Assembly (NCBI GenBank): GCA_964187785.1
Contig: OZ076409.1
Coordinates: 19,532,001 to 19,596,000, forward strand
Reading direction: 5' to 3'
DNA length: 64,000 bases
DNA from: Amphiscolops sp. MND2022
Taxonomy: Eukaryota
Shown: positions 37,689 to 40,600 of the stretch, piece by piece
How the letters are laid out: each line of letters starts with the position of its first letter
Numbering within the stretch: the first letter of the stretch is position 1
Position numbers and translations under genes: made by a program
The notes under the pieces: generated by a model
Databases searched by the model: none
Told to the model about the DNA's origin: nothing
What the model saw: the letters and a program-made list of their open reading frames with translations, nothing else

Positions 37689-40600
37689 CCACACACACAC
37701 ACACACACACGCACACACTACCAAGTGTGGAATTGTGCCCGCACAGAAACACATTGTATGTAATACAGCTAGGAGGTGTGTCACAGGTACGCACACAGTC
37801 ACACACACACACGGCACCAAGTGTGGAATTTATTGTGTGCACGGATTTTAATATAATTGAATGTATGCATTAAAATGTTCACCGCTCAGCCAGCTGAAGA
37901 AAGTATCCTGTAATAAGCAAGCTAATATTACAGTATTTCGCCTCCCGATGGCCGAGTGGTTAGTGTGCTCGGCCATCATTTCAACCGGCGAGGTTCGAGT
38001 CCCGGGAGGGACTCATAGTCTTTGGTAGAAATGAAATTTTGTTTTGTCAAACTAAGCCCCCCCCATCGATTTGTTAGTTAGATATAATAACCAACTACTT
38101 GTGCCAACGACATTGTTCGAAACTTGCAAAAATGATCGTTTTGGCACCTTTATATTAGGAGGTCGGGGGACTTTTGAGTTCAAGATCACTCCATTTAAAA
38201 ACATTCCGTTTGCTTTGTGGTTTTTCATACTGGCCAACACATTGCATTGAACAGAACTTGCATAAAATTATCGAAAACTTTTCACTTCGAAAGTCAGTTG
38301 TAGGCAGGGTTTTGACATCGCTAATTTTTTCCGCTAATCGCTAAACCGCTAATTTGAAAATCGCTATTTCGCTGAAAAGCTTTTTCTGCAAACTATTAAA
38401 TGTTTAGCTTCAAGTATGTTTCAAAATAACTTATTCGGTTTTTGCAAGAAAAAACTAGAATTTTTGTACTGTGCGTGTTTTACCATGGGTAAAAGTTGGA
38501 TTTTTTCCGAAATTCATTTTGAAACACCGTTTATACACAGAAGAAATTTTGAATTTGGAGGGTCTGTTTGTTACCGCTAATTTGAATCGCTAATGAAATC
38601 GCTGAAAAATTCCTGCGCGGCCGCTAATTCGCTAAATCGCTGATTAGCGGTGTCAAAACTCTGGTTGTAGGGGTCCATGGCCTAGTGGGTAGACCTAGAT
38701 AGTCTAGTAGTTAAGTCGAGGGGCGTGGTTTCGTATCCTTCTCCGCCCGTGTTTTAAATGTTTTCGTTTGAACGTTGCTATAAGCGTTTCTGCATATTAT
38801 TTACGAAGTGGCCTAGATCGGATATAATGTTAACAATTTTTTTCCTGCGTCTCACCAGGCGGTAGGCGTGCGGCTTGAATGTAGCCGAAGCCATTTTTTA
38901 GCCTCCTCTGATACGAAGCCTATAACCTAAAAGATTCCGAACGTCACATATCCCGTTGTCGTTCAACCTCGTCCTAATTTCTTGGAGGCACCCAAAGGAT
39001 CCACCCTTTGGGCTAACAGTATTTCGACTTTCTTCAAAACTAGAGACTAAGAAGGATCCCACTTCTAGTTTTTGACTTTTTGAGGTTTCGCCCAATTTTG
39101 TCATGCTCCAAGAGTGCCCCCCTTGAATGCCCTGATGATTTGCAGCATTATCTCTTTTCTGATTTATTTGGTGATGAAAATTCCCACTTTCGAAATTTCT
39201 CAAAATCAGCAGATCTTTGAAAAAACTTACGCTTTTGGGCTACAGGCGTGGCGTCGAATTTGTCTGTTGATAGCCTGCTTTCATATACTTGAATTTCTCG
39301 AGATTTTTGTTCCGTTTTGAAATCATCTGTCCATTTGTAGAGAGTTCAAAAGATGTGCTAATCAAGTGCTGCTGTCGAATGATTAGCAAATTGTCGACAG
39401 AACTTAGATTGTTTGTTTGTTTCTATGTCGATAAATTTGATTCTAACCTCCTCTCGCGTTCTTTCATGTGTGGATCATGTAATATGGACAATGTTTGTTT
39501 TTGTTTGGCGCAGGTCGCATAGACTCGATGCACGAAGTGAAGGGCAAGGATGGCGTGGGGACCAAGATGGATTCGATGGAGTTGGAGAGACAGAGGGGCA
39601 TCACCATCAAGTCAGCTGCCACTTACTTCACATGGAACAACTTCGCTGTCAACGTTATCGATACTCCTGGTCACGTGGATTTCACCATAGAGGTGGAGCG
39701 CTCACTAAGGTAGATGGAGTATTCATCTTTTTGTCCTGAGTACTATAGGCATTCCATGGGTATACAACGTGGGTCAGGACTTCTTGAACCTTCCATAAGT
39801 ATCCACGATTTTTCGCCAATTTTGCGATCACCCATAAATATATTGTTTTCAAGACTAGACGGATTAGAAGCTTTTATTTACTTAGTTTCAACACAGTCTG
39901 CTTACAATTCTATGATGGTCATAAAATTCGACCCATTTTCATAAGCAACTTGTTCAACAAATGGTTTAACCATATGGCTAAAAAAAGTTCAATAGTCAAA
40001 CGCTTTTTAACAATAACCATATGGTTAAACCATTGTGGTTGAATTCAACTTTTCCTTAACTGATATTTACTCGAATGAATGAATTCTAAACATGAACTTC
40101 TACAAAATGTTTTTTAATCTTTGAAGTGCCAGACGTAAATGTTGATTCTCAACTCACGACTCATGTGACCGAGTAAAAGGACAAAATTTGGGATAACAAT
40201 GCATTTCTGTATTGAACCATTGTTTCTAGCTCTACGAAAAATTGAGAAATCTACGAAATACCCTTACTATATAACTTCTGTTGTTAGAGTTCTGGACGGG
40301 GCGGTGCTTGTGTTGTGTGGAGTAGCCGGAGTGCAGAGCCAGACGATGACAGTGAACAGACAGATGAAGAGATACTCTGTGCCTTGTGTGGCCTTCATCA
40401 ACAAGTTGGACAGAATGAATGCCAGTCCAGACAGAGTGAAAGACATGCTCACCAAGCGACTCATGCACAACGCTGGCTTCATCAACTACCCCATTGGTAC
40501 CAGGGACCACAGTTTTATGCTGCTATTGAAAACAAATTATGCGGCTGTGAACAGTAAATAATGCCAAATATGCTTTCAAAAGTCAACGTATTTCACATTC

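Follow-up and report, generated by a model that had tools for sequence, protein, structure and literature searches.

Exchangeable bodies under a kept tRNA-type Pol III promoter at Polinton ends and in BEL/Pao LTRs of Amphiscolops: a possible cis-acting cassette

The window, by which we mean the whole analysed stretch of 64,000 nucleotides from Amphiscolops sp. MND2022 (contig OZ076409.1, positions 19,532,001 to 19,596,000), contains a Polinton/Maverick element of the family that we call F1 (Table 1). The element was recognised by its reading frames for pPolB, ATPase, protease, capsid and an integrase-like protein, by terminal inverted repeats (TIRs) of the form AG...CT and by a 6-bp target duplication, in which five of the six positions match. 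The pPolB has a Pfam match (PF03175); the matches to the packaging (A32) ATPase and to the adenoviral-type protease are weak and lie below the Pfam cut-off, and the ORF at 25149-25754, which we take to be integrase-like, has no Pfam match. At least 95 copies of the capsid ORF are found in the genome at 96-100% identity, and among the 120 matches listed for the capsid the only named relatives are two acoel proteins (54-55%). The TIRs are about 150 bp long, 93% identical to each other and have AGTAGT termini.

Both the polymerase region (31440-34668) and the integrase-like region (24772-25754) are split over more than one ORF, so that the copy in the window is probably broken there. Near the right end, the ORF at 36461-37024 (minus strand) contains both ribosomal protein S5 (uS5) domains, and between it and the polymerase region lie eleven tandem repeats of 84 bp (35059-36112). 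Homologues of this uS5-like protein were found near the right end of 11 F1/F5 stretches examined, at only 27-41% identity, which makes them far more diverged than the capsid. The first ORF, which encodes a small membrane-type EGF-like protein, is 83-97% identical across the left ends of F1 and has matches of 51-60% in F3, F4 and F5. Directly to the left of the insertion we see an ORF (20291-20599, plus strand) with a GTP-binding motif of the EF-G/EF-Tu type, and the insertion site may be an intron of a translation-factor gene. On the other side, 580 bp past the right end, the host DNA holds another tRNA-like A box, accompanied by a degenerate B box (38677-38740, plus strand), of which no second copy was seen among the loci examined.

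Table 1. Features of the Polinton and of its two terminal units, in window coordinates.
Feature	Position	Strand	Remarks
Polinton/Maverick element, family F1	20676..38099	.	17.4 kb, AGTAGT...ACTACT termini
Left terminal inverted repeat	20676..20824	-	from TIR comparison
T4 run, left unit	20733..20736	-	read from sequence
B box, left unit	20771..20781	-	same B box as right unit
A box, left unit	20814..20824	-	two free positions differ from right A box
TATA-like motif, left unit	20856..20863	-	back to back with start of first viral ORF
First ORF	20919..21188	+	membrane-type segment and EGF-like domain (PF00008 above cut-off)
TATA-like motif, right unit	37911..37917	+	predicted TFIIIB site, 38 nt upstream of right A box
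10-bp hairpin	37947..37977	+	specific to the window's subtype; arms 37947-37956 / 37968-37977; 12 bp with two G-U pairs
A box, right unit	37949..37959	+	TGGCCGAGTGG, read from sequence
Right terminal inverted repeat	37949..38099	+	about 150 bp; inner edge inside A box
B box, right unit	37992..38002	+	GGTTCGAGTCC, read from sequence
7-bp hairpin over 3' half of B box	37997..38014	+	found at both ends of the window element
T4 run, right unit	38037..38040	+	predicted Pol III terminator, 34 nt past B box; predicted RNA of about 100 nt
C-tract and terminal 35 bp	38057..38099	+	beyond predicted transcript; presumed replication origin / integrase end

The original prediction for this locus was a tRNA-type Pol III unit in the right TIR, with an A box and a B box 32 nt apart, four T residues downstream and an orientation out of the element. 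All of these features are present, and together (an A box, a B box at tRNA spacing and then a T-run) they make up the sequence of a type 2, that is tRNA-type, Pol III promoter. A search with a strict A/B pattern finds two matches in the window, one at each end of the Polinton, compared with a mean of 0.0 in 200 shuffles. The unit does lie in the right TIR as proposed, but it is not confined to it, since the left end has a unit of its own, which also faces outwards and is devoid of the 10-bp hairpin. Between the left A box and the start of the first ORF, which is on the other strand, there are 95 bp. Both units stop short of the C-tract and of the terminal bases; for 38057-38099 we assume the role of replication origin or integrase end from general Polinton biology.

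The region of the right unit folds at a z-score of -4.19, with 1 in 200 shuffles equally good. The A box had been placed in a perfect 10-bp hairpin; we find this hairpin, and it can be extended by two G-U pairs. A second proposed pairing, of CCTCCCG with CGGGAGG, is indeed complementary, but when the full length is folded the 7-bp hairpin over the B box is preferred to it. The pairing forms (6/7 pairs) only in a 73-nt fragment, and across the copies of the subtype we see no compensatory change in it and three broken cells. That the unit would not fold as a cloverleaf was correctly foreseen: ARAGORN finds 0 tRNAs in the window, and the acceptor and T stems reach 4/7 and 3/5 pairs. A tRNA gene was rejected on the same stems, and both units of the window remain uncalled even at the relaxed threshold.

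A search of the genome (1.07 Gb) with a 26-nt core of the unit gave 152 exact copies, with 0 for the control, and many of them form inverted pairs 11-26 kb apart. The first 30 copies in genome order are all situated at Polinton ends (28 with an exact ACTACT, 2 with a variant terminus). The sequence is therefore not a high-copy host SINE, the case in which the original prediction would have failed; a tRNA-derived SINE, which would be dispersed and have its own ends, a tail and target duplications, is ruled out because the copies examined sit at Polinton ends. For a shorter core, the 14-nt B-box core, there are 281 copies; of the first 30, 25 lie at Polinton ends (24 passed the terminus test and 1 was recognised by eye), and the remaining five are non-Polinton matches with unrelated bodies. 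A second class of units has 99 exact cores, and 29 of 30 examined lie at Polinton ends. Two loci, L263 and L232, have bodies of this second class with neither a Polinton terminus nor Polinton proteins within 10 kb; they are either truncated ends or belong to another carrier.

The sister elements were chosen by their capsid gene in order to avoid choosing them by the boxes. This gave 29 elements from C1-C3 and the first 40 Mb of C4, the ends of which were tallied by hand, with one element set aside because of unclear ends. The unit is present at all 28 left ends found (three with one B-box mismatch) and at 23 of 28 right ends, the others being decayed (2) or devoid of a unit (3); since the copies are related, such counts of ends are not counts of independent events. 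The boxes are thus kept in sister elements, as had been expected of a genuine unit.

A larger set of 121 ends was collected by the B box (including two false picks), and the conservation of the B box in this set is accordingly circular. The A box is complete (8/8) in 111 of these ends, compared with 23 of 2000 background windows, and 115 keep a spacing of 42-45 nt between the starts of the two boxes. The sequence between the boxes, on the other hand, falls into 14 real clusters at 80% identity, and these types are often about 50% alike. For example, four left ends match that of the window at 88-94% identity over the inner 300 bp but at only 49-54% between the boxes, where the shuffled level is 0.46; two other left ends of the window's class are 82-88% identical there. 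Such a low inter-box identity between near-identical elements means that the ends behave as recombining modules, namely upstream region with A box, body, B box with terminator, and terminal bases. These modules are exchanged between near-identical elements and also between two families (F1 and F5). In 13 of the 20 clusters of upstream sequences, a TATA-like motif, which was not used in the selection, precedes the A box by 34-41 nt (mean of the shuffles 2.5, 0/1000 shuffles reaching 13; slid windows 1-3), with the caveat that its pattern and window were fixed after the sequences had been viewed. The TATA-like motif, the A box, the spacing and the T-run hence persist across about 14 inter-box types.

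In some elements the same inner-end type is found at both ends, left-left or right-right (L034/L035, L102/L103, L106/L107, L115/L116 and L091/L092), which suggests recombination between copies or long inverted duplications.

We folded 21 hand-picked representatives, in two of which (L176 and L264) the A box was misplaced. A z-score of -2 or better was reached by five, four of them from the window's class. In 20 of the 21, no more than 4/7 pairs form in the acceptor stem; in 13 of them the T-arm stem has 4-5 of its 5 pairs. The window's subtype makes up 38 of 115 ends, and in 20 distinct copies of it 98.8% of the hairpin cells are paired, with 6 of the 12 pairs varying by wobble. None of the 12 pairs is changed on both sides in these copies, and so the covariation that had been suggested as a check came out negative. 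A scan of the unit region against Rfam gave nothing near the gathering score and no 5S match; a Cassandra-type element was rejected as well, as the unit is an A/B-box unit in a Polinton TIR with no 5S match.

At the relaxed tRNA threshold, and only there, three of eight Polinton units examined are called as tRNAs; L184 is called there as tRNA-Glu. One class of units (L159, L184 and L282) is 64-69% identical to the host tRNA-Glu, with inter-box z-scores of 3.3-4.7. This likeness and the call of L184 support an origin from tRNA. The window's own body is 56% identical to host tRNA-Glu (inter-box z 1.3), and among the five host tRNA types compared its scores to Lys, Arg, Leu and Ala-like tRNAs are similar to or above that to Glu, so that no one source tRNA stands out for it.

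During the search for host tRNA-Glu we met direct repeats, 7-9 kb from each other, that contain A/B units. They are the LTRs of BEL/Pao retrotransposons, as identified by Pfam matches to the Pao peptidase, RT and integrase domains, and the unit sits 50-110 nt into the LTR (loci L286-L291 and L417-L476). A pattern made of the LTR start and the boxes has 149 matches, and 0 in the control. LTR starts chosen independently of the boxes gave 170 matches, of which the first 30 were read: 22 have both boxes intact, five have one damaged box, and three are cleanly without a unit, two of these three being the LTR pair of one insertion. Here, too, the bodies vary, with six types between similar flanks. 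A comparison of Polinton with BEL/Pao bodies revealed no clearly shared type; the z-scores of up to 4.3 resemble the scores to generic tRNAs.

The host DNA itself has numerous tRNA-like sequences. We see dispersed SINE-like families with tRNA heads in the host flanks (L172, L176, L206, L293 and L295) and long tandem arrays in which genes for tRNA-Glu and tRNA-Lys occur in many variant copies (C5 at 31.45 Mb, C7 at 5.2-5.3 Mb). One strict A/B pair was counted in 38.6 kb of host flank. With a host so rich in tRNA-like heads, their capture at element ends would be easy.

The five Polinton families differ in their units, as far as one genome and related copies can tell. Family F5 has outward units at 4/4 ends, of types that are also seen in F1. 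We found no unit at 6/6 ends of F2 examined, none at the 4/4 ends of F3 that were found (six had been sought, and the ends of one F3 element, like those of one F1 element, were not located) and no outward-facing unit at 4/4 ends of F4.

Inward-facing features were seen in two of these families. About 330-400 nt inside both right ends of F5 (L216 and L218) there is a second A/B unit, facing inwards and back to back with the terminal unit, which differs between the two loci. The right ends of F4 have a doubtful unit, in which an A box facing inwards is accompanied by a poor B box; in L212 and L214, about 150-420 nt inside the right end, we see, facing inwards, an A box and a weak B box together with an AT-rich stretch and long hairpins rich in GC. 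The F4 feature has no Rfam match and could possibly encode a longer structured Pol III RNA, in which case it would be a better VA-like candidate than the window's unit.

Outside this genome, we found no relatives in viral contigs by capsid, by capsid alignment or by ATPase. The metagenome search yielded seven contigs of 1.3-3.5 kb, which are too short to reach element ends. When the viral contigs were searched with the B-box and terminus pattern, none of the 120 stretches listed matched the five Polinton proteins.

What could be the function of such a unit? The promoter signals are fixed and the body is variable, and the same is seen in unrelated retrotransposons, which makes it likely that the promoter rather than the RNA matters; where a promoter is kept and its product is not, the simplest function is one in cis. 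Our preferred reading, with a probability of slightly under one half, is that the unit may be a tRNA-derived Pol III promoter cassette kept for its occupancy by TFIIIC and Pol III, as a barrier in cis or as a seed of open chromatin. This agrees with the boundary element that the original prediction had named as its other possibility. Its role would probably be to keep the ends of the element out of silenced chromatin. TFIIIC, TFIIIB and Pol III would assemble on the TATA-like motif, A box and B box, and an RNA of 80-105 nt would be transcribed outwards, stopping before the terminal origin. The occupied, nucleosome-poor site would then form a chromatin barrier at the edge of the element and keep its ends open. 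The cassette may also help a neighbouring Pol II promoter, including that of the first viral gene, which stands back to back with the left unit; the short RNA would be largely a by-product. The invariant presence of the left unit beside the first ORF and the position in the LTR fit such a role in cis.

Several observations speak for caution. According to the accessible text of the fission yeast studies, a tDNA barrier requires both TFIIIC and Pol III (PMC2040200), and inverted repeats of B boxes bound a 20-kb domain in which silencing is favoured (PMC7474672); the direction of the chromatin effect of our cassette could consequently be either. The absence of an outward-facing unit from family F4, and of any unit from families F2 and F3, from some right ends of F1 and from an LTR pair that was nevertheless inserted argues against any essential role. 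Moreover, the kept T-run and T-arm stem suit a real RNA product equally well. A wider version of the cis reading, in which two Polinton families and BEL/Pao would have converged on exchangeable mini-tRNA genes that mimic tDNA against silencing, with the Pol III machinery shielding the ends and repeated swaps of the body evading host small RNAs, is conceivable, and we hold it to be clearly less probable than the cassette itself.

The alternative that survives best is that the RNA does act, independently of its fold, as a tRNA-like decoy or source of small RNAs that soaks up host RNA-binding or silencing factors, its bodies being swapped against recognition by small RNAs. The transcription unit is complete with a terminator, there are hundreds of templates (the 152 and 99 exact cores of the two classes and the 149 LTR matches), and bodies are exchanged block-wise in near-identical elements. 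That elements without a unit have still inserted is what a product acting in trans would allow, and a Pol III miRNA cassette is found in the LTR U3 of foamy viruses, as far as the accessible text of PMC7693620 goes. We nevertheless consider a decoy improbable, as the bodies have neither a common sequence nor a common fold, and their divergence near the shuffled level equally fits neutrality.

Neutrality is itself the next explanation: tRNA pseudogenes or SINE heads could have been captured at the ends and then multiplied through conversion of the TIRs and through recombination, without any advantage for the element. The many tRNA-like heads in the host DNA, the resemblance of one class to host tRNA-Glu, the three Polinton families that do without and the decayed and missing ends all agree with a remnant of this kind. 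It does not readily explain, however, why the boxes and their spacing, the TATA-like motif and the T-run have been kept while identity in the body has fallen to about 50%, why no left end of the capsid-chosen set has lost its unit, why the same placement recurs in an unrelated class of elements, and why the body of the window has no dispersed copies among the 30 examined. We therefore rate it somewhat below the decoy.

Still a little less probable is a helper of the origin, in which factors bound beside the terminal origin, or transcription there, would promote protein-primed replication or the processing of the ends. Host factors are known to aid replication at the adenovirus ITRs. The unit has a fixed place about 75-145 nt away from the terminus, towards which it points, and ends before the C-tract; this would suit such a role, and human bocavirus BocaSR is a Pol III RNA of a genome end that acts at a terminal origin (accessible parts of PMC11194592). 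Both ends need an origin, yet 3/28 right ends and whole families are without a unit; the copies in LTRs are left unexplained, and BocaSR is sensitive to point changes whereas the Polinton bodies are exchangeable.

Finally, the suggestion of the original prediction that the locus encodes a VA-like hairpin RNA countering a dsRNA sensor or Dicer is very unlikely and, as a function of the whole family, largely refuted: the type 2 promoter in a relative of adenoviruses, the stable fold of the subtype and its well-paired hairpin would favour it, but this hairpin occurs in a single subtype only, is found neither at the left end nor in most of the types, and varies without compensatory change. Adenovirus VA RNA itself could be rejected, since the longest uninterrupted stem is 12 bp, the predicted RNA is about 100 nt instead of about 160 nt, and there is no Rfam match and no conserved covarying structure; VA-I needs a stem of at least 20 bp for the inhibition of PKR (accessible text of PMC6599070).

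We know of no account of how Polintons stay expressible after integration, or of the host factors that recognise their TIRs. With a complete Pol III promoter at the ends there is a concrete host-factor handle on this, and the genome provides natural controls, namely near-identical elements with, without or with different units, in two unrelated classes of elements. Should the barrier reading be true, we would be looking at the use of tDNA insulation by mobile elements in an animal, and at a general escape route from silencing; should the RNA act, it would be the first Polinton non-coding RNA in the literature searched. In that literature (subscription journals, Repbase entries and supplements were outside its scope) we met no description of a Pol III unit in the TIRs of a Polinton or the LTRs of a BEL/Pao element, and none of bodies that are exchangeable while the Pol III promoter stays fixed. 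The accessible portions of PMC8502044, PMC11131425 and PMC10748475 make no mention of polymerase III, and those of PMC12849515 no mention of PKR or Dicer. VA genes, for comparison, are internal in the adenovirus genome.

What is already known, judging by the accessible portions of the papers cited here and below, are Pol III units in terminal repeats (Cassandra and foamy virus LTRs), BocaSR as such a unit at the end of a viral genome, and tRNA genes of Polinton-like viruses. In its proposed mode of action, our unit resembles the fission yeast barriers (tDNA-Ala of cen1, PMC2040200; IR-L/IR-R, PMC7474672), where TFIIIC sites in inverted repeats bracket a domain of about 20 kb. Those barriers are chromosomal features of the host with a tested function, and IR-L/R has B boxes only, recruits no Pol III and favours silencing inside (PMC7474672); the Polinton units are complete, sit on a mobile element and are known from sequence alone. 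Like the adenovirus VA RNA, they are short non-coding units with a type 2 Pol III promoter, in a lineage of DNA viruses that replicate by protein priming. The VA RNA, however, has about 160 nt with a long apical stem, an invariant tetrastem and a central domain, whereas the Polinton units are terminal, 80-105 nt long and have no conserved fold (PMC6599070). BocaSR, in turn, is a Pol III unit with A and B boxes at one end of a linear viral DNA genome, beside the terminal origin; it is a single structured RNA of 140 nt that is sensitive to point mutations, while Polintons have units at both ends with many exchangeable bodies (PMC11194592).

The foamy virus cassettes, which like the BEL/Pao units are Pol III units in an LTR (in U3), are dumbbell-shaped miRNA precursors, whereas the BEL/Pao units keep the tRNA spacing and have no common stem of the pre-miRNA type (PMC7693620). 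Sequences of tRNAs do occur in relatives of Polintons, the Polinton-like viruses (PMC12220804; PMC8502044), where they are called as genes and discussed with regard to translation; the units described here fail tRNA calling and have fixed terminal positions. A further parallel is the Cassandra TRIM, as available in bioRxiv 10.1101/2023.07.14.548913, in which a fragment of a host Pol III gene has kept its internal promoter in both terminal repeats. In Cassandra this is a 5S-derived promoter in LTRs with a conserved body, and in Polintons a tRNA-type A/B-box promoter with an exchanged body. The carriers differ as well, being in our case an autonomous virus-like DNA element and the BEL/Pao elements of an animal.
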